From assembly GCF_030013205.1 (NCBI RefSeq), contig NZ_CP122648.1: DNA of 64,000 nucleotides; one strand, written 5' to 3'. The DNA is from Escherichia coli. Its GTDB lineage: Bacteria; Pseudomonadota; Gammaproteobacteria; Enterobacterales; Enterobacteriaceae. Shown in pieces: positions 3,360 to 58,300 of this stretch (position 1 is the stretch's first letter; every line of letters begins with the position of its first letter). A program made the position numbers and the translations under genes. The notes below the pieces were generated by a model, which searched no databases, was not told where the DNA came from, and worked only from the letters and a program-made list of their open reading frames with translations.

Positions 3360-4727
3360 TTAACGCATCAGCAGATAGATGCTTTCATTGCCGCGTACAA
3401 TTTGCAGGGCGATGATGGCCGGTTTTGCCGCCAGCACTTTACGCATTTCAGCAATCGAGTTCACCCGATCGCGGTTGACGCCAATGATCACATCGTCTTT
3501 TTGCAAGCCAGCCTGAGCAGCTGGGCTTCCTTTGACAACCTCATCGATCTTAATACCTTTGCCGCCATCTTTTAGCTGACCATCGCTCAACGTTGCACCT
3601 TCAAGCGCTGGCGTGATCATTTCAGCGCTGGCCGACGAAGAGGTGCTGGTATCGAGCGTCACTTCTACTTCCAGTGGTTTGCCGTTACGCAGCAGGCCAA
3701 GCTTCACTTTCGTGCCCGGCTCGGTGGTTGCGATACGAGAGCGCAACTCAGCAAAGCTATTCAGCGGTTTGCCGTTGAGGCTGGTAATAATATCGCCCGC
3801 TTTGACGCCCGCTTTTGCCGAGCCAGAACCTGGCAACACTTCGCTGACAAACGCGCCACGCTGCACGTCAAGGTTGAAGGCTTTGGCGATATCGGCACTC
3901 ATCTCGGTGCCTTTGATGCCTAACAAACCGCGTTTGATTTCACCAAAGTCGATAAGCTGCTGCGCCAGTGTTCGCGCCATATTACTGGGGATGGCAAATC
4001 CAATCCCGACGCTCCCGCCGCCAGGCGCAAGGATTGCAGTGTTGATGCCAATTAACTCACCGTTAAGGTTTAACAGTGCACCGCCGGAGTTACCGCGGTT
4101 AATGGAAGCATCTGTCTGGATAAAGTTTTCCAGACCTTCAAGATTCAACCCACTGCGGCCTAATGCGGAAACAATGCCAGAGGTGGCGGTTTGCCCAAGG
4201 CCAAATGGGTTACCGACCGCCACGGCAAAATCACCGACGCGCAATTTATCGGAGTCGGCAATAGCGATTTGCGTTAATTTGCTCGGGTTTTGAATTTGCA
4301 ACAGGGCGATATCGCTCTGGTCATCGCTACCAATCAGTTTTGCATCAAACTCGCGCCCATCATTGAGCTGAATACTGATTTTCTGTGCCTGATTAATCAC
4401 ATGGTTGTTAGTCAGCACATAGCCTTTACTGGCGTTGATGATGACACCGGAGCCTAAACCTTCGAAGGGTTGTGCCGGTTGATCCGGTAAATCATCACCA
4501 AAAAACTTTTTGAATTCTTCCGGGATTTTCTGTCCCTGACTGGCCGTTCCTTCCACCCGTACGCTCACCACTGCCGGAAGCACTTTTTCCAGCATTGGGG
4601 CCAGACTGGGGAGGGGGGCCTGATCGGCAACCTGGCCTGGAATCGACGCGACGGCCTGAAATGACGCCGAGAGAGTTAACCCGACACTTAACGCTAATGC
4701 ACTCAACAGCTGGGTTTGTTTTTTCAT
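3360..4727 (-). CDS. degQ: periplasmic serine endoprotease DegQ
   Basis: 455 aa from MKKQTQLLSALALSVGL (track ORF has upstream extension); protease plus two PDZ domains. Confidence 0.95.
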   Translation of the reverse strand: MKKQTQLLSALALSVGLTLSASFQAVASIPGQVADQAPLPSLAPMLEKVLPAVVSVRVEGTASQGQKIPEEFKKFFGDDLPDQPAQPFEGLGSGVIINASKGYVLTNNHVINQAQKISIQLNDGREFDAKLIGSDDQSDIALLQIQNPSKLTQIAIADSDKLRVGDFAVAVGNPFGLGQTATSGIVSALGRSGLNLEGLENFIQTDASINRGNSGGALLNLNGELIGINTAILAPGGGSVGIGFAIPSNMARTLAQQLIDFGEIKRGLLGIKGTEMSADIAKAFNLDVQRGAFVSEVLPGSGSAKAGVKAGDIITSLNGKPLNSFAELRSRIATTEPGTKVKLGLLRNGKPLEVEVTLDTSTSSSASAEMITPALEGATLSDGQLKDGGKGIKIDEVVKGSPAAQAGLQKDDVIIGVNRDRVNSIAEMRKVLAAKPAIIALQIVRGNESIYLLMR

Positions 4728-25403: not shown

Positions 25404-27740
25404 ATGAAGCAAATTCGTCTGCTGGCGCAGTATTATGTTGACCTGATGATGAAGTTAGGTCTGGTGCGCTTCTCAATGTTGCTGGCGCTGGCCCTCGTCG
25501 TTCTTGCCATTGTGGTACAAATGGCGGTAACCATGGTGCTGCATGGTCAGGTCGAAAGCATTGATGTTATTCGTTCTATCTTCTTTGGTTTGCTGATTAC
25601 GCCGTGGGCGGTCTACTTTCTATCGGTGGTCGTCGAGCAACTGGAGGAGTCACGGCAACGTCTGTCACGGCTGGTGCAAAAACTGGAGGAGATGCGCGAG
25701 CGCGATTTGAGCCTCAACGTTCAGTTAAAAGATAATATTGCCCAGCTAAATCAGGAAATCGCCGTTCGTGAAAAAGCGGAAGCAGAACTGCAGGAAACCT
25801 TCGGCCAACTGAAAATTGAAATTAAAGAGCGCGAAGAGACACAAATTCAGCTCGAACAGCAATCCTCATTCTTACGTTCCTTTCTTGATGCTTCACCCGA
25901 CCTGGTTTTTTATCGTAACGAAGATAAAGAGTTTTCCGGCTGTAACCGCGCGATGGAGCTGCTGACCGGAAAAAGCGAAAAACAACTGGTTCACCTGAAA
26001 CCTGCTGATGTTTACTCACCGGAAGCCGCCGCAAAAGTCATTGAAACCGATGAAAAAGTGTTCCGTCATAATGTGTCACTGACCTATGAACAGTGGCTGG
26101 ATTACCCGGACGGGCGCAAAGCCTGTTTTGAAATCCGTAAAGTGCCGTACTACGACCGCGTGGGTAAACGTCACGGTTTGATGGGTTTTGGTCGCGACAT
26201 TACCGAGCGTAAGCGGTATCAGGATGCGCTTGAACGGGCCAGCCGCGACAAAACGACGTTTATCTCCACCATCAGTCACGAATTGCGTACACCGCTGAAT
26301 GGTATCGTCGGCCTGAGCCGCATTCTGCTGGATACCGAACTCACCGCCGAGCAGGAAAAATATCTCAAAACCATCCATGTTTCGGCCGTCACGCTCGGGA
26401 ATATCTTCAACGATATTATCGACATGGATAAGATGGAACGGCGTAAGGTCCAGCTTGATAATCAGCCGGTTGATTTCACCAGCTTCCTTGCCGATCTGGA
26501 AAATCTCTCCGCATTGCAGGCGCAACAAAAAGGATTGCGCTTTAATCTGGAGCCTACGCTGCCATTACCGCATCAGGTCATTACCGACGGGACGCGTTTA
26601 CGGCAGATCCTGTGGAATCTCATCAGTAACGCCGTCAAATTCACCCAGCAAGGCCAGGTTACCGTGCGCGTGCGCTACGATGAAGGCGATATGCTGCATT
26701 TTGAAGTGGAAGACTCTGGTATCGGCATTCCGCAGGATGAGCTGGATAAAATCTTTGCCATGTATTACCAGGTGAAAGACAGTCATGGCGGTAAACCTGC
26801 CACCGGCACCGGTATTGGTCTGGCCGTTTCTCGTCGTCTGGCGAAAAATATGGGCGGCGATATTACGGTTACCAGCGAACAGGGTAAAGGTTCAACCTTT
26901 ACGTTGACGATCCACGCACCGTCGGTGGCTGAAGAGGTCGATGATGCGTTTGATGAAGACGATATGCCTTTACCGGCGCTGAATGTGCTGCTGGTGGAAG
27001 ACATTGAACTGAACGTGATTGTCGCGCGTTCTGTGCTGGAAAAATTAGGTAACAGCGTTGATGTCGCCATGACCGGCAAGGCGGCGCTGGAGATGTTTAA
27101 ACCGGGCGAATACGACCTGGTATTGCTGGATATTCAGTTGCCAGATATGACCGGGCTGGATATCTCTCGTGAACTGACGAAGCGTTATCCGCGCGAGGAT
27201 TTACCGCCGCTGGTGGCCTTAACCGCTAACGTGCTGAAAGACAAGCAAGAGTACCTCAATGCTGGAATGGATGATGTGCTGAGTAAGCCGCTTTCTGTTC
27301 CGGCGCTAACCGCGATGATCAAGAAATTCTGGGATACCCAGGATGATGAGGAGAGTACGGTGACGACAGAAGAGAACAGTAAATCAGAAGCATTGCTCGA
27401 TATTCCCATGCTGGAACAGTATCTCGAACTTGTAGGACCGAAGCTGATCACCGACGGGTTAGCGGTGTTTGAGAAGATGATGCCGGGCTATGTCAGCGTG
27501 CTGGAGTCGAATCTGACGGCGCAGGATAAAAAAGGCATTGTTGAGGAAGGACATAAAATTAAAGGTGCGGCGGGGTCAGTGGGGTTACGCCATCTGCAAC
27601 AGCTGGGTCAGCAAATTCAGTCTCCTGACCTTCCCGCCTGGGAAGATAACGTCGGTGAATGGATTGAAGAGATGAAAGAAGAGTGGCGTCACGACGTAGA
27701 AGTACTGAAAGCGTGGGTGGCAAAAGCCACTAAAAAATGA
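25404..27740 (+). CDS. arcB: aerobic respiration control sensor kinase ArcB
   Basis: 778 aa MKQIRLLAQYYVDLMMKLGLVRF...; transmitter H-box ISHELRTPLN, receiver and HPt domains. Confidence 0.97.
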   Translation: MKQIRLLAQYYVDLMMKLGLVRFSMLLALALVVLAIVVQMAVTMVLHGQVESIDVIRSIFFGLLITPWAVYFLSVVVEQLEESRQRLSRLVQKLEEMRERDLSLNVQLKDNIAQLNQEIAVREKAEAELQETFGQLKIEIKEREETQIQLEQQSSFLRSFLDASPDLVFYRNEDKEFSGCNRAMELLTGKSEKQLVHLKPADVYSPEAAAKVIETDEKVFRHNVSLTYEQWLDYPDGRKACFEIRKVPYYDRVGKRHGLMGFGRDITERKRYQDALERASRDKTTFISTISHELRTPLNGIVGLSRILLDTELTAEQEKYLKTIHVSAVTLGNIFNDIIDMDKMERRKVQLDNQPVDFTSFLADLENLSALQAQQKGLRFNLEPTLPLPHQVITDGTRLRQILWNLISNAVKFTQQGQVTVRVRYDEGDMLHFEVEDSGIGIPQDELDKIFAMYYQVKDSHGGKPATGTGIGLAVSRRLAKNMGGDITVTSEQGKGSTFTLTIHAPSVAEEVDDAFDEDDMPLPALNVLLVEDIELNVIVARSVLEKLGNSVDVAMTGKAALEMFKPGEYDLVLLDIQLPDMTGLDISRELTKRYPREDLPPLVALTANVLKDKQEYLNAGMDDVLSKPLSVPALTAMIKKFWDTQDDEESTVTTEENSKSEALLDIPMLEQYLELVGPKLITDGLAVFEKMMPGYVSVLESNLTAQDKKGIVEEGHKIKGAAGSVGLRHLQQLGQQIQSPDLPAWEDNVGEWIEEMKEEWRHDVEVLKAWVAKATKK

Positions 27741-27853
27741 CCCCGGCTAGACCGGGGTGCGCGAATACTGCGCCAACACCAGGGAAATCTTGGCTGCGCC
27801 GTAAATTATTATGATGAGTTACAAGGGCACAGCACTGTTTTTCAGGCCGCACG
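27733..27853 (-). ncRNA. arcZ: small regulatory RNA ArcZ
   Basis: minus-strand sequence gtgcggcctgaaaaacagtgctgtgccc...ccccggtctagccggggtcatttttt matches ArcZ as I recall it; its terminator overlaps the arcB stop codon. Confidence 0.85.
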
Positions 27854-27969
27854 CAGTTAAGATAGCAAAACTTAAATGATTTGTTACATGAATCAGTTAA
27901 ATGTGTGATGCGTAGCATTTTTATTAAAAAAATTAATGTGTTTCAGTCAATTGCGAAAGGATGATCACA

Positions 27970-28623
27970 ATGAAGAAAATTGGCGTAATTCTGAGCGGAT
28001 GCGGCGTCTATGACGGTTCTGAAATTCATGAAGCGGTGTTGACGTTGTTAGCTATTTCACGCAGCGGTGCGCAGGCGGTCTGCTTTGCACCGGATAAGCA
28101 GCAGGTTGATGTTATCAACCATTTAACGGGCGAAGCGATGACGGAAACGCGCAATGTGCTGATTGAAGCGGCACGAATAACGCGCGGTGAAATCCGTCCT
28201 CTGGCCCAGGCCGATGCCGCTGAACTGGATGCGTTGATTGTGCCGGGGGGGTTTGGCGCGGCGAAGAATTTAAGCAATTTTGCCAGTCTTGGTAGCGAAT
28301 GCACCGTTGACCGTGAATTAAAGGCGCTGGCACAAGCGATGCATCAGGCCGGAAAACCGCTTGGTTTTATGTGTATTGCCCCGGCGATGCTGCCGAAAAT
28401 TTTCGATTTCCCGCTGCGTTTGACCATCGGTACTGATATCGATACCGCAGAAGTGCTGGAAGAGATGGGCGCGGAGCATGTGCCGTGTCCTGTCGATGAT
28501 ATCGTGGTTGATGAAGACAATAAGATTGTCACCACCCCGGCATATATGCTGGCGCAGAACATTGCAGAAGCGGCGAGCGGCATTGATAAGCTGGTTTCCC
28601 GCGTGCTGGTCCTGGCGGAATGA
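27970..28623 (+). CDS. elbB: DJ-1/PfpI-family protein ElbB
   Basis: 217 aa from [23 protein letters not shown]. Confidence 0.93.
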
Positions 28624-29348
28624 GTAAAAGCCGCTTAACGGTGTTTAGTTTCATTCGCCGTTTTCTTCTGCGGTTAATGGTTGTCCTCGCCGTTTTCTGG
28701 GGCGGGGGCATTGCGTTGTTTAGCGTTGCGCCTGTTCCTTTCTCTGCGGTAATGGTCGAGCGGCAAGTCAGCGCCTGGCTGCATGGCAATTTTCGTTACG
28801 TGGCACATTCTGACTGGGTCAACATGGATCAAATCTCGCCGTGGATGGGACTGGCGGTGATTGCCGCAGAAGATCAGAAGTTTCCTGAGCACTGGGGCTT
28901 TGATGTCGCTTCCATTGAGCAAGCCCTGGCGCACAACGAACGCAATGAAAACCGTATTCGCGGTGCGTCGACGATTTCTCAGCAGACAGCCAAAAATCTC
29001 TTTTTATGGGATGGGCGCAGCTGGGTTCGAAAAGGGCTGGAAGCCGGATTAACGCTGGGGATAGAAACTGTCTGGAGCAAAAAGCGTATCCTGACGGTTT
29101 ACCTGAATATCGCCGAATTTGGCGACGGTGTGTTTGGCGTCGAAGCTGCGGCACAACGTTATTTCCACAAACCCGCGAGCAAACTTACCCGCTCGGAAGC
29201 TGCATTACTGGCTGCTGTATTACCTAATCCACTTCGTTTCAAAGTCTCCGCGCCATCGGGCTACGTGCGTAGCCGTCAGGCGTGGATTTTACGGCAGATG
29301 TATCAGTTAGGCGGTGAGTCGTTTATGCAACAGCACCAGCTGGATTAA
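28620..29348 (+). CDS. mtgA: monofunctional peptidoglycan glycosyltransferase
   Basis: 242 aa [29 protein letters not shown]...; start overlaps the elbB stop. Confidence 0.95.
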
Positions 29349-29977
29349 GCTTCGCGCGAAGTGAGGGCCAGCGTTTTGCTCTCACGAGGTTGCAGATCTT
29401 TCTGCAGGGCAATAGCCAGCGCCGGTTGGGCGATAAATCGTTTCCATAACCGCTCTTGCTTACGCAGACAACACCACTTCGACCAGGTCGCCAGTGGAAT
29501 CAATGTGCTTTCACCAATGTTGTCGCAGACGACGGGGATAACCTCTGACTCACTGATGCGGTGACAGAGGATATTCTGCGGCTTCAGCGACATCGTCACG
29601 ATACGGTTATCCTGCAAATAACGCTTCAGCTGTTTCAGTAGCTGGCGCAGTTGTGCAATGTCTTCTTCGTAACGGCATTGTTCAGCAAATTCGGTCAGCG
29701 TAATGGAGGGTTTGCCGTCAAAATCTGCAATCACATCGTAGACATAACCGGTTCCGCAATCCGTCTCAACGGTACCGTGATAGCGCGGTATTCCACTCCA
29801 GTCTTTTAACCGACGACCAAGATGCGCGTAGTACTTTAACTCACGGCGGATCTCTTTATCGCCACCATCGCCACGATGGTAGACAATCTTGATACAGCGT
29901 TGGGCATCTTCCGGATGCGCATAACATTTCCGATGTCTTCCGGTGCCCAGGGGACTTTGTTCAGATAAGCGAATCAT
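29345..29977 (-). CDS. yrbL: PhoP-regulated protein YrbL
   Basis: 210 aa from [28 protein letters not shown] (internal ATG; track ORF starts at an upstream TTG). Confidence 0.9.
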
Positions 29978-30027
29978 GCCATCTCCTGGAAATATTTTCT
30001 GACGATCTCCAGTATGGTCGATTAACT

Positions 30028-30044
30028 TAAACAAAACCTAAACA
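30028..30044 (-). promoter_or_regulatory. PhoP box upstream of yrbL
   Basis: minus-strand TGTTTA-GGTTT-TGTTTA direct repeat about 50-65 bp upstream of the yrbL ATG; matches the (T/G)GTTTA-N5-(T/G)GTTTA consensus. Confidence 0.7.
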
Positions 30045-30189
30045 ATGCCTCTTAAGGTTTTCTTAAGGTTCTTCTGAAAGTGAAAAGCGCACAAAATGTA
30101 CAAATGACGTTGATTGAGAACGATTTCAGTACGCGCTTTTCTTATTGCCGGAGGAGCTTGAAGGGATTTGAATGTCAAAGTGATGAAGA

Positions 30190-30462
30190 TTAATCTTCAT
30201 CAAAACCAGAGTTAAAGAGGGCGATAACGGCGGCCAGTGCTTCCTCTTCCTGTGGACCGGTCGCTTCAACTTCAATCTGCCGTCCTTTGGCAGAATCCAA
30301 CATCAGCAGCGCAATAACGCTGTTGGCTTCAGCCTCGGTGCCTTCGTCATTACGTAACAGCACTTCAGCGTCAAAACCCTGCATTAATTCAAACAGCTTC
30401 ATTGCAGGCCGGGCATGCATGCCCAGCTTGTTTGTGATTTCAACAGTTTGCTTGACGGTCAT
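30190..30462 (-). CDS. ptsO: nitrogen-PTS phosphocarrier NPr
   Basis: 90 aa [24 protein letters not shown]...; HPr-like with active-site His. Confidence 0.95.
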
Positions 30463-31313
30463 GGTTTACGTTTTTCCAGCGTCCGATGGCGTGACTGGAC
30501 GTTTTTACCGCGCGAGCGGAAGTAGTCTGCCAGTTGCTCTGCAATATACACCGAACGGTGCTTCCCGCCGGTACAACCAATGGCGACCGTCAGGTAGCTA
30601 CGGTTGTTGGTTTCCAGCATAGGTAACCATAGCTCAAGATAGCTTCGCGTCTGGTAGATAAAATTGTGTACTTCTGTGTGGCGGTCGAGGAACGCGGCGA
30701 CAGGTTTATCAAGACCTGTCATTGGACGCAGTTTCGGATCCCAGTGCGGGTTCGGCAAGAAGCGCACGTCAAAGACGTAATCTGCATCGATAGGGATACC
30801 GTGTTTGAAGCCGAAAGACTCAAAGACCATTGTCAGTTCGCGTTCACGTTTACCCAGCAGACGGGTACGCAGCATTTCAGCCAGCTCGTGAACGGACATT
30901 TCTGAGGTATCGACAATCAGATCCGCTCGCGAACGCAGAGGCTCCAGCAAATCGCTTTCTTTGTCGATAGCACTTTCCAGCGACAGGTTTTTGCTGGAAA
31001 GCGGATGCAGTCGGCGCGTGTCACTGTAACGACGAATTAAGGTATTACGGTCGGCATCCAGGAACAGGAGTTGCGGTGAGAAAGCGTCAGGCAGGTTACT
31101 CATCGCCTGTTCGAATATTTCTGGTGACTCCGGCATATTACGAACATCAATGCTGACGGCGGCAGAAATCTCGCGATCGGCCAGGGTTCGAGCCAGATCG
31201 GGTAACAACACTACGGGAAGGTTATCCACGCAGTAAAAACCCATATCTTCCAGCGCACGCAGGGCGACAGATTTACCTGAACCTGAACGTCCGCTGACGA
31301 TCATCAGTACCAT
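30459..31313 (-). CDS. rapZ: RNase adaptor protein RapZ
   Basis: 284 aa [26 protein letters not shown]... with Walker A. Confidence 0.95.
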
Positions 31314-35048: not shown

Positions 35049-35592
35049 AGGATGTTCTAACCTTTTCAATCAGCTCGGCGTTCTTGCTGCGTAAGTTGCC
35101 GCGCATTTTCAGACCGCTGGAGTTAAATGTTGTTCCGTATAACGTGACGAGGTCTTCAGAGGTAACATCCTGCGTCACCAGATTGATCTGCGCGTTATCC
35201 GTCGTGATTCTGCGAAGTTGAGAGTCCGGCACAAGTGCGTTGACTTCAACGTGTCCATATAAATAGAGCATCCGGTCATTGGTCAGCTTGGCTTTATCTG
35301 CTTTTACGGACCATGTCGGGATTTTATCCTTATCAAACGTGGTAAGTACCGGCTGCGTAAACCACGAAACGGCCTGATCGGAATAATATTCAACATGTTG
35401 AGCAATCAATCGATAGCTTAGTGCCCCTTCTGGGTTATAGACGAGCGTGTCCGTATGCTCGCTTTTATAGGTGGGATCATTGTTGTTGACGACCACCTGG
35501 GCGGTATCGTCTTTTTCGGCCATATTAATGCCGATCATCACCAGAACCGCCAGTGATAGCACAATGATAACCCAACGTCTGGCTTTACTCAT
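35017..35592 (-). CDS. lptC: LPS export system protein LptC
   Basis: 191 aa MSKARRWVIIVLSLAVLVMIGINMAEKDD...; 3' end overlaps the lptA start by about 32 nt. Confidence 0.95.
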   Translation of the reverse strand: MSKARRWVIIVLSLAVLVMIGINMAEKDDTAQVVVNNNDPTYKSEHTDTLVYNPEGALSYRLIAQHVEYYSDQAVSWFTQPVLTTFDKDKIPTWSVKADKAKLTNDRMLYLYGHVEVNALVPDSQLRRITTDNAQINLVTQDVTSEDLVTLYGTTFNSSGLKMRGNLRSKNAELIEKVRTSYEIQNKQTQP

Positions 35593-36155
35593 ATCGATTG
35601 CCCTTTGGCTTCATCCAGTTTGCCCTGCGCCAGGAGTAATAAGTCGCAAACTTCACGCACTGCACCACGACCGCCAGCAATGCGCGTCACGTAATCGGCG
35701 CGCGGGAGCAACAGTGGATGCGCATCGGCCACGGCGACGCTTAAACCCACTTTTTCCATTACCGGCCAGTCGATGAGATCATCGCCGACATAAGCCACAT
35801 TTTCCGGGGCAATCGCCAGTTTTTCCAGCAAATCGCTAAAGGCGATCAGTTTGTTTGACTGCCCCTGATACAAGTGAGTGATCCCCAATGTGGCACAACG
35901 ATCTTCTACCAGTTTAGCCTTTCGCCCGGTAATGATAGCGACTTCAATATCAGAGGTGAGCGCACAACGAATGCCATAACCGTCACGAACATTGAACGCT
36001 TTCAGCTCTTCGCCATTATTGCCCATATAAATCAGGCCATCTGACAGTACGCCATCGACATCGAGGATCAGCAGACGAATGTTCTCTGCTTTTGCTATAA
36101 CGTCGGCGCTGACAGGGCCGTAACAGGTCGCAAGCGACGCACCTGCTTTGCTCAT
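35589..36155 (-). CDS. kdsC: KDO-8-phosphate phosphatase
   Basis: 188 aa MSKAGASLATCYGPVSADVIAKAENIRLLILDVDGVL (HAD motif). Confidence 0.95.
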   Translation of the reverse strand: MSKAGASLATCYGPVSADVIAKAENIRLLILDVDGVLSDGLIYMGNNGEELKAFNVRDGYGIRCALTSDIEVAIITGRKAKLVEDRCATLGITHLYQGQSNKLIAFSDLLEKLAIAPENVAYVGDDLIDWPVMEKVGLSVAVADAHPLLLPRADYVTRIAGGRGAVREVCDLLLLAQGKLDEAKGQSI

Positions 36156-56667: not shown

Positions 56668-58293
56668 ATGACAGTATTCAACAAATTTGTTAGAAGTTTT
56701 AAATCTCATTGGTTGTTGTATCTTTGTGTTATTGTTTTTGGTATTACGAACTTAGTCGCCTCTTCCGGAGCGCATATGGTTCAGCGATTGCTGTTCTTCG
56801 TTCTGACCATCCTGGTTGTTAAACGTATATCATCCCTTTCGCTTCGCCTGCTTGTTGCCGCACCATTTGTGTTACTGACAGCGGCAGACATGAGTATTAG
56901 CCTCTATTCATGGTGTACCTTTGGTACAACTTTCAATGATGGATTTGCGATTAGCGTGCTGCAGAGTGATCCGGATGAAGTTGTCAAAATGCTGGGGATG
57001 TATATCCCTTATCTATGTGCTTTTGCCTTTTTATCCCTTCTTTTTTTTGCAGTAATAATAAAATATGATGTTTCCTTGCCGACGAAAAAAGTGACAGGAA
57101 TATTATTGCTGATTGTCATTTCGGGCAGTTTATTTTCCGCTTGTCAATTTGCTTATAAAGATGCAAAAAATAAAAAAGCGTTCAGTCCATATATACTAGC
57201 GTCGCGATTTGCTACCTATACACCGTTTTTCAATCTCAATTATTTTGCTTTAGCAGCGAAAGAGCATCAAAGATTACTCTCAATTGCAAACACGGTGCCG
57301 TATTTTCAATTATCAGTCAGGGATACAGGTATTGATACCTACGTGTTGATTGTGGGGGAGTCTGTACGTGTCGACAATATGTCTTTGTATGGATATACAC
57401 GCTCTACGACACCGCAAGTCGAAGCACAAAGAAAACAGATCAAACTGTTTAATCAAGCAATAAGCGGTGCACCTTACACTGCGCTGTCGGTTCCCCTTTC
57501 TTTAACTGCTGATTCTGTTTTGAGTCATGACATTCATAATTACCCGGACAACATTATTAATATGGCTAATCAAGCAGGATTTCAGACTTTCTGGCTAAGC
57601 TCGCAATCCGCTTTTCGGCAGAATGGTACAGCAGTTACCAGTATCGCCATGCGCGCCATGGAAACAGTCTATGTCAGAGGATTTGATGAATTGTTGTTGC
57701 CGCATTTATCGCAAGCGTTAAAGCAAAAGACGCAGCAAAAGAAACTGATTGTTCTTCATTTAAATGGAAGCCATGAACCGGCTTGTAGCGCCTATCCGCA
57801 ATCCAGCGCCGTGTTTCAACCGCAGGACGATCAGGATGCCTGCTATGACAACTCCATTCATTACACAGATAGTTTGCTAGGTCAGATTTTTGAATTATTA
57901 AAAGATCGCCGCGCCTCGGTCATGTATTTTGCCGACCACGGCCTGGAACGTGACCCTACGAAGAAGAACGTCTATTTTCATGGAGGCAGGGAGGCTAGCC
58001 AGCAGGCATATCATGTCCCGATGTTTATCTGGTATAGCCCCGTTCTTGGGGATGGCGTGGATCGCACAACGGAAAACAACATCTTTTCCACAGCTTACAA
58101 TAATTACCTGATTAATGCGTGGATGGGGGTAACAAAGCCGGAACAACCGAAAACGCTGGAGGAAGTGATTGCACACTATAAAGGAGACTCACGGGTTGTG
58201 GATGCAAACCATGATGTTTTCGATTATGTGATGCTCAGAAAGGAGTTTACAGAGGATAAGCAAGGTAACCCCACCCCTGAAGGGCAGGGTTGA
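56668..58293 (+). CDS. yhbX: putative phosphoethanolamine transferase (EptA-like sulfatase-family membrane protein) YhbX
   Basis: 541 aa from MTVFNKFVRSFKSHWLLYLCV (internal ATG); N-terminal TM segments, C-terminal sulfatase-like domain; visibly AT-rich compared with neighbours. Confidence 0.85.
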   Translation: MTVFNKFVRSFKSHWLLYLCVIVFGITNLVASSGAHMVQRLLFFVLTILVVKRISSLSLRLLVAAPFVLLTAADMSISLYSWCTFGTTFNDGFAISVLQSDPDEVVKMLGMYIPYLCAFAFLSLLFFAVIIKYDVSLPTKKVTGILLLIVISGSLFSACQFAYKDAKNKKAFSPYILASRFATYTPFFNLNYFALAAKEHQRLLSIANTVPYFQLSVRDTGIDTYVLIVGESVRVDNMSLYGYTRSTTPQVEAQRKQIKLFNQAISGAPYTALSVPLSLTADSVLSHDIHNYPDNIINMANQAGFQTFWLSSQSAFRQNGTAVTSIAMRAMETVYVRGFDELLLPHLSQALKQKTQQKKLIVLHLNGSHEPACSAYPQSSAVFQPQDDQDACYDNSIHYTDSLLGQIFELLKDRRASVMYFADHGLERDPTKKNVYFHGGREASQQAYHVPMFIWYSPVLGDGVDRTTENNIFSTAYNNYLINAWMGVTKPEQPKTLEEVIAHYKGDSRVVDANHDVFDYVMLRKEFTEDKQGNPTPEGQG

Positions 58294-58300
58294 TGTCGAA

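Follow-up and report, generated by a model that had tools for sequence, protein, structure and literature searches.

The window analyzed here is a 64,000-nucleotide stretch of DNA from Escherichia coli. Gene annotation for the window was taken from the RefSeq record of the near-identical strain K_EC180, in which arcB, elbB and mtgA lie on the plus strand and yrbL, npr, rapZ, ptsN, hpf and rpoN follow on the minus strand. Between positions 28500 and 30300 the window is 100% identical to K_EC180 and 97.7-98.5% identical to the other E. coli listed. The junction at which mtgA and yrbL converge is defined by three features:

28620..29348, plus strand: mtgA coding sequence (monofunctional peptidoglycan glycosyltransferase, 242 aa; ORF list, RefSeq annotation and Pfam)
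29345..29977, minus strand: yrbL coding sequence (PhoP regulatory network protein YrbL, 210 aa, ATG at 29977; ORF list, RefSeq annotation, Pfam and homologues)
29345..29348, both strands: TTAA tetramer containing both stop codons (mtgA TAA at 29346-29348, yrbL TAA at 29347-29345; read directly, and identical in K-12)

Direct reading of the sequence shows that the plus strand ends mtgA with ...CAG CTG GAT TAA (stop at 29346-29348) and that the minus strand ends yrbL with ...CGC GAA GCT TAA (stop at 29347-29345), such that the two stops overlap within a single TTAA. This is the arrangement that an earlier note on this DNA had described, and the ORF list, the RefSeq annotation and the K-12 genome all agree with it. 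In K-12 MG1655, RefSeq places yrbL at 3348452..3349084 and mtgA at 3349081..3349809, an identical 4-bp overlap, and a 70-nt junction probe finds a single-piece match in 5401 of 5426 complete E. coli genomes, with mtgA and yrbL both annotated beneath the probe among the matches listed. Because the overlap reaches, besides the stop bases, only the wobble bases of the last sense codons (GAT for Asp and GCT for Ala), it places no amino-acid constraint on either protein. At the other end of mtgA, its start codon and the elbB stop share an ATGA at 28620-28623. The longest open reading frame in the yrbL frame has 229 aa with a TTG start; the annotated protein has 210 aa from its ATG.

Is the overlap genuine, or could it be an annotation artefact in which one of the genes ends earlier or in another frame? 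The bodies of both proteins are recognized by Pfam (MtgA as Transgly, PF00912, E 8e-54; YrbL as YrbL-PhoP_reg, PF10707, E 2e-67), and what speaks for an artefact is that the last 15 residues of MtgA and the last 25 of YrbL fall outside these domains and that the YrbL tail varies among distant relatives. For comparison, an alignment of YrbL homologues was used to fetch 51 loci, one genome per species, and both stops were located in each; all spacing counts given below refer to the 27 loci in which yrbL and mtgA are adjacent and convergent. The MtgA C-terminus (...FM..H/N.L.*) ends at a homologous residue in all 27, whatever the spacing, and YrbL ends in ...SSREA* or ...TSREA* in Escherichia, Citrobacter and Salmonella, even where the two genes lie 74-104 nt apart. 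Both frames are also open up to their stops with no earlier in-frame stop. The misassigned frame against which the earlier note had cautioned is ruled out by these open frames, by the Pfam matches and by the homologous C-termini in loci that do not overlap, and an artefact of annotation is thus extremely improbable.

The 4-nt overlap belongs to a well-described class. Lillo & Krakauer 2007 reported that the number of convergent overlaps jumps at length 4, with CTAA, TTAA, CTAG or TTAG as the four-base sequence, and counted 1890 convergent overlaps in 58 species, 1218 of them at least 5 nt long, from which it follows that roughly a third are 4 nt or shorter (PMC2174442). The class is accounted for by models of stop-codon mutation without invoking selection, in which a gene lengthens until it reaches the complement of the neighbour's stop, and 58 convergent overlaps were counted in E. 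coli (PMC2174442). At the yrbL-mtgA junction two adjacent convergent genes in genuine frames have their stops in one YTAR tetramer at no cost in amino acids, so that the pair is an ordinary member of the standard 4-nt YTAR mode, does not differ from it in kind and counts among the 58 E. coli cases. The window holds eight convergent pairs, separated by 123, 43, 59, -4, 47, 40, 155 and 7 nt, and one of the eight is a YTAR overlap. The 7-nt gap lies between yhbX (plus strand) and argG (minus strand), which converge at 58291-58299; argG-yhbX likewise appears in the list of E. coli MG1655 excludons (PMC12288877).

Two further observations concern the window at large. An IS200C transposase gene (1621-2079) lies between mdh and degS together with an STnc490 RNA (Rfam, 146 bits, 1488-1611). 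Agreement with the K_EC180 record is exact up to position 35864, and at 35862-35865 the window reads CCCC where the otherwise identical record reads CCC; kdsC (35589-36155, minus strand), which is flagged as frameshifted in that record, is an intact 188-aa ORF in the window. The difference is likely a homopolymer sequencing error in the K_EC180 record.

Upstream of yrbL lie the elements of a regulated promoter:

30011..30016, minus strand: -10 hexamer CATACT, separated from the PhoP box upstream of it by 11 nt (sequence, and PMC3335776 Tables 1-2)
30028..30044, minus strand: PhoP box TGTTTAGGTTTTGTTTA, a perfect direct repeat and the only zero-mismatch match in the 64-kb window
30051..30067, minus strand: direct repeat CTTAAG-N5-CTTAAG immediately upstream of the PhoP box, resembling a PmrA box (sequence)

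The repeat at 30051-30067 resembles what we take to be the PmrA consensus. Repression of the E. coli yrbL promoter by PmrA has been described (PMC3335776). The presence of a PhoP box, which the earlier note had also proposed, is borne out by a perfect match at 30044..30028 on the minus strand; when up to two mismatches are allowed, the pattern is otherwise found in the window at chance level (12 found against 13 expected). The box matches that of Salmonella yrbL, TCGTTTAGGTTTTGTTTAA, and with its hexamer and the unusual spacing of 11 nt it reproduces the published PhoP-activated, class II 'architecture I' yrbL promoter (PMC3335776). This architecture has a single direct-repeat box, (T/G)GTTTA-N5-(T/G)GTTTA, in direct orientation and a spacing of 11-12 nt, about one helical turn, to the -10 hexamer; both are present here, the spacing being 11 nt. 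A scan of 27700-30600 gave no match to the sigma-70 consensus, which is expected because the yrbL promoter is PhoP-dependent and has a poor -35 element. Dependence on PhoP and low Mg2+ was established for Salmonella yrbL by S1 mapping (PMC3335776), and in E. coli yrbL is employed as a PhoP reporter (PMC13215669).

A further question is how transcription ends on two strands that have no intergenic DNA between them. The earlier note had argued that the genes leave no room for a terminator, and this is correct: a consensus scan of 27700-30600 detected no hairpin followed by a U-tract within ~230 nt of the junction on either strand, and the total of terminator-like sites in that interval was no greater than in shuffled sequence. 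The nearest intrinsic terminator on the yrbL strand is that of ArcZ, at 27758..27740, and 141-nt RNAs spanning the junction fold no more stably than shuffles on either strand (z -0.7 and -0.4). Coordinates from the K-12 study of Adams et al. 2021 (PMC7815308) were transferred to the window by alignment, and the features that bear on termination are as follows:

29251..29282, minus strand: stem-loop CGCCUGACGGCUACGCACGUAGCCCGAUGGCG (-15.6 kcal/mol by RNA folding) in the yrbL 3' UTR, antisense to the mtgA codons for ...GYVRS...
29247..29248, minus strand: Term-seq 3' end on the yrbL strand, listed as 'antisense mtgA' (K-12 3349181/3349182; PMC7815308 Supplementary file 1)
28730, minus strand: peak of the yrbL-strand Rho termination region (K-12 3349699; PMC7815308 Supplementary file 2)
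29621, plus strand: peak of the mtgA-strand Rho termination region, 273 nt beyond the stop of mtgA (K-12 3348808; PMC7815308 Supplementary file 2)
28965..29104, minus strand: candidate rut region predicted from composition, the strongest C-rich and G-poor stretch (C up to 39%, G 15%, C/G up to 2.6)
29245-29344, minus strand: second candidate rut region in the yrbL-strand RNA, predicted from composition
29409..29548, plus strand: candidate rut region antisense to yrbL with C in excess of G (C/G 1.2-1.5), predicted from composition

The RNA 3'-end mapping that the earlier note had proposed as a check is largely covered by these published data, which describe another strain, K-12, grown in LB or M63 as opposed to the low-Mg2+, PhoP-inducing conditions named in the note. 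On the yrbL strand the mapped 3' end is found 97 nt beyond the yrbL stop, 3 nt downstream of the stem-loop, and no U-tract follows it (PMC7815308, mapped here). The Rho region on the same strand has upstream/downstream reads of 280/21 in untreated cells and 613/672 after bicyclomycin (Rho score 14.6, p 3e-54), and that on the mtgA strand has 85/38 and 46/66 (Rho score 3.2, p 2e-5); both regions derive from 800-nt windows, such that their positions are coarse (PMC7815308). The K-12 data report no discrete 3' end for the mtgA transcript (PMC7815308), and neither mtgA nor yrbL is entered in the SMRT-Cappable-seq supplements. A further Term-seq end lies at 29848 on the minus strand (K-12 3348581), 129 nt into the yrbL ORF; its scores of 5938 and 10894 exceed those of the 3' UTR end, and with a Rho score of 1.2 it is not Rho-dependent (PMC7815308).

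The composition of the RNA past both stops fits loading by Rho. The yrbL-strand RNA has a C/G ratio of 1.4-1.7 in the first 100 nt past the stop, rising to 2.6 at +241 to +380, and the mtgA-strand RNA has a ratio of 1.2-1.5 at +61 to +200. The junction thus combines C-rich, G-poor RNA past the stops with readthrough that bicyclomycin raises on both strands in K-12, together with a 3' end at the foot of a hairpin that lacks a U-tract, and in each of these respects it resembles published cases of Rho termination followed by 3' trimming (PMC7815308; Dar & Sorek 2018, PMC6061677). It differs from them in that termination takes place inside the coding region of the neighbouring gene, and the rut sites named here are candidates.

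An alternative hypothesis is that an intrinsic, possibly bidirectional, hairpin is hidden in the 3' end of mtgA or yrbL and that the two transcripts hardly overlap. The -15.6 kcal/mol stem-loop does coincide with the 3' end mapped on the yrbL strand, the mtgA stop is followed by two hairpins (-11.6 and -8.6 kcal/mol), and about 20% of E. coli genes in convergent overlaps reportedly have a Rho-independent terminator inside their partner (PMC2174442). However, all of these hairpins lack a U-tract, the scan gave no terminator-like hit at any of them, no 3' end has been reported at the hairpins past the mtgA stop, and readthrough is bicyclomycin-sensitive on both strands (PMC7815308). Covariation in the stem-loop likewise shows nothing beyond what MtgA coding explains: 90% of the structure can pair in 29 Enterobacteriaceae, and covariation among these 29 sequences is no better than in shuffles (231/500). 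A hidden intrinsic terminator is for these reasons very unlikely. As a selected RNA structure in its own right, the stem-loop was rejected on the same covariation result, the conserved GYVRS codons of MtgA being an adequate explanation. The one double change of its kind among the 29 sequences occurs in E. albertii (locus L010, alignment columns 78-93), where GGC...GCC has become GGT...ACC, such that pairing is kept and MtgA Ser is replaced by Asn. The 12-nt palindrome CTTCGCGCGAAG beside the TTAA was also rejected as a terminator; it folds weakly (-2.4 to -3.8 kcal/mol) and simply codes for the end of YrbL, ...SREA.

Comparison across the Enterobacteriaceae reveals how freely the spacing between the two stops has changed. 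The -4 state is the commonest, with 14 of the 27 loci, and is found in five Escherichia lineages, one Citrobacter amalonaticus, three Pseudocitrobacter, UBA5654, two Superficieibacter, Intestinirhabdus and Siccibacter turicensis; the tetramers at these loci are TTAA, TTAG and CTAA, three of the four possible. Deeper overlaps of -26 occur in Pseudescherichia vulneris and its relatives and in C. koseri. In this variant (loci L027, L028 and L030 at 3572-3597, and L031 at 3648-3673) the frame of the YrbL tail differs, and the tail is coded antisense to the last seven MtgA codons. Pluralibacter is at +1, three Citrobacter and Siccibacter colletis are at +5 to +7, and values of +31 and +47 are also seen. 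The widest gaps, +74 and +83 in Salmonella enterica subspecies diarizonae and arizonae and +104 in C. amalonaticus S646, contain the following elements:

3634-3707 of locus L017, 3634-3716 of locus L020 and 3634-3737 of locus L014: REP/BIME-like spacers exactly between the yrbL and mtgA stops (Salmonella enterica subspecies diarizonae/arizonae and C. amalonaticus S646)

These long spacers carry paired palindromic units (GCCGGATAAGRCG...CGCCATCCGGC; GCCTGATGGCGCT..GCTTATCAGGCC) that fold at -29 to -41 kcal/mol, and the units agree with what we take to be the enterobacterial REP consensus. The same junction in Salmonella and in one Citrobacter is therefore an instance of REP/BIME elements between convergent genes, with stable hairpins between the stops, and the E. 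coli junction differs in having no such element. An intergenic region at this position has independently been described in Salmonella, where a cassette was inserted 37 bp beyond the stop of yrbL and 28 bp beyond that of mtgA (PMC3261920). Parsimony makes the -4 state ancestral, and the REP spacers look derived, as insertions between otherwise unchanged stops.

More distant YrbL homologues occur in gut Betaproteobacteria (~50% identity; Sutterella and Parasutterella, loci L036-L044 and L049) and in Negativicutes (~30% identity; Selenomonadaceae, loci L053, L054 and L056), none of them beside mtgA, and Parasutterella secunda has two YrbL copies on one contig. This patchy distribution suggests horizontal transfer. 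A YrbL fragment with 98% identity to the E. coli protein is present on a 420-bp contig (L033, NZ_JUET01000135.1) of the Tannerella forsythia ATCC 43037 assembly, and this contig is probably E. coli contamination.

The PhoP box was compared in the 200 nt upstream of yrbL in loci L006-L035. It is found ~50 nt upstream of yrbL in Escherichia, Salmonella, C. amalonaticus S646, C. koseri and Pseudocitrobacter vendiensis, and at up to two mismatches it was not detected in Superficieibacter, Siccibacter, Intestinirhabdus, UBA5654 or C. amalonaticus AUH, all of which are in the -4 state. Conversely, Salmonella and C. amalonaticus S646 keep the box despite REP hairpins between the genes, which is to say a box without an overlap. 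The number of Enterobacteriaceae in which yrbL shows no PhoP box at this threshold is large, and the label 'PhoP regulatory network protein' may, judging from these promoter regions, not be valid for the whole family.

Does convergence at this junction influence expression of either gene? The earlier note had raised the possibility of convergent interference, and one part of that proposal stands, in that the transcripts do overlap. ExcludonFinder lists yrbL-mtgA among 165 convergent pairs in which transcription overlaps in at least half of 58 MG1655 transcriptomes (PMC12288877), in agreement with the K-12 termination data (PMC7815308), and since the coding sequences themselves touch, overlap of the transcripts is unavoidable. 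The other part, that the interference would be meaningful, is unsupported, and the comparative data argue against a co-evolved device. Convergent excludons (PMC12288877; PMC7154746) share with this pair their overlapping 3' ends; however, the definition implies mutually exclusive expression, while for yrbL-mtgA it is transcript overlap alone that is documented, and here the coding sequences touch, as opposed to a regulated extension of a 3' UTR. The junction is in this sense already known: it is annotated in RefSeq, it is in the excludon catalogue and its class is well described.

A more specific hypothesis is that the junction is a selected excludon, in which yrbL, induced by PhoP in low Mg2+, is read up to ~600 nt antisense into mtgA and lowers its expression by collision of polymerases and/or cleavage of the RNA duplex by RNase III, thereby linking the PhoPQ envelope response to glycan-chain synthesis. 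A tested E. coli precedent is mscL-arfA (PMC10070815), which is likewise a convergent pair with complementary 3' regions and one stress-induced partner; repression, changed mRNA stability and RNase III cleavage were shown there by experiment, and the likeness of yrbL-mtgA to it is one of arrangement. As a class, excludon pairs tend to mutually exclusive expression in single cells (PMC12288877), and the prevalence of the -4 arrangement across genera, like the documented overlap of the two transcripts, would also be compatible with selection. The untreated read counts lend further weight: in LB, and without induction, RNA of the yrbL strand over mtgA (280 reads per 800 nt) is not below that of the mtgA strand (85). 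Against this, our literature search found no paper on an effect of PhoP, Mg2+ or yrbL on mtgA, antisense transcription is limited by Rho, the spacing varies freely from -26 to +104, and stop-codon mutation models explain the class without selection (PMC2174442). In five genera or more the overlap persists and no PhoP box is detected, and Salmonella and C. amalonaticus S646 combine the box with REP hairpins that separate the two stops. Since the distribution of the overlap across genera is independent of that of the box, a co-evolved interference device is not supported; interference is unproven and, from the comparison of loci, looks unselected. We consider a selected excludon unlikely, and it is quite unlikely that PhoP-induced yrbL transcription antisense through most of mtgA measurably lowers MtgA during low-Mg2+ or antimicrobial-peptide stress.

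The explanation that we favor, with a probability of about 0.8 for the whole, is that the junction is an ordinary, ancestral 4-nt tail-to-tail overlap of unrelated genes in which Rho ends each transcript inside the neighbour, and that the overlap is a by-product of compact packing rather than a device selected for PhoP-dependent control of mtgA. Because neither intergenic DNA nor an intrinsic terminator is present, polymerase leaving each gene runs into the other on its antisense strand. Release of the ribosome at the stop codon would expose untranslated, C-rich RNA, onto which Rho would presumably load, and Rho would then stop transcription within the neighbouring gene. The yrbL transcript would subsequently be trimmed by exonucleases back to the stem-loop 97 nt past its stop, and the outcome is two transcription units whose 3' ends overlap. 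The overlap itself, its conservation, the lack of an intrinsic terminator and the excess of C over G past both stops are established here, and the mapped 3' end, the bicyclomycin sensitivity on both strands and the overlapping RNA-seq coverage were established in K-12 by others. Interference between the genes would be small under this explanation. The untreated read counts given above speak against it on this point, and by these K-12 counts an effect on mtgA may exist; selection could also be why the -4 state is kept in many genera.

If PhoP induction of yrbL did damp mtgA, the shared-stop junction would hard-wire the PhoPQ envelope response to peptidoglycan glycan polymerization in Escherichia, a link that Salmonella would have uncoupled by insertion of REP hairpins, and both the PhoP regulon and the set of functional excludons would be modestly enlarged. 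The comparative data make such a selected PhoP-mtgA function unlikely, and the significance of the junction is low. To us it illustrates, in clean textbook fashion, the way in which convergent genes under tight packing end where no terminator is present, with Rho clearing the invading transcripts.
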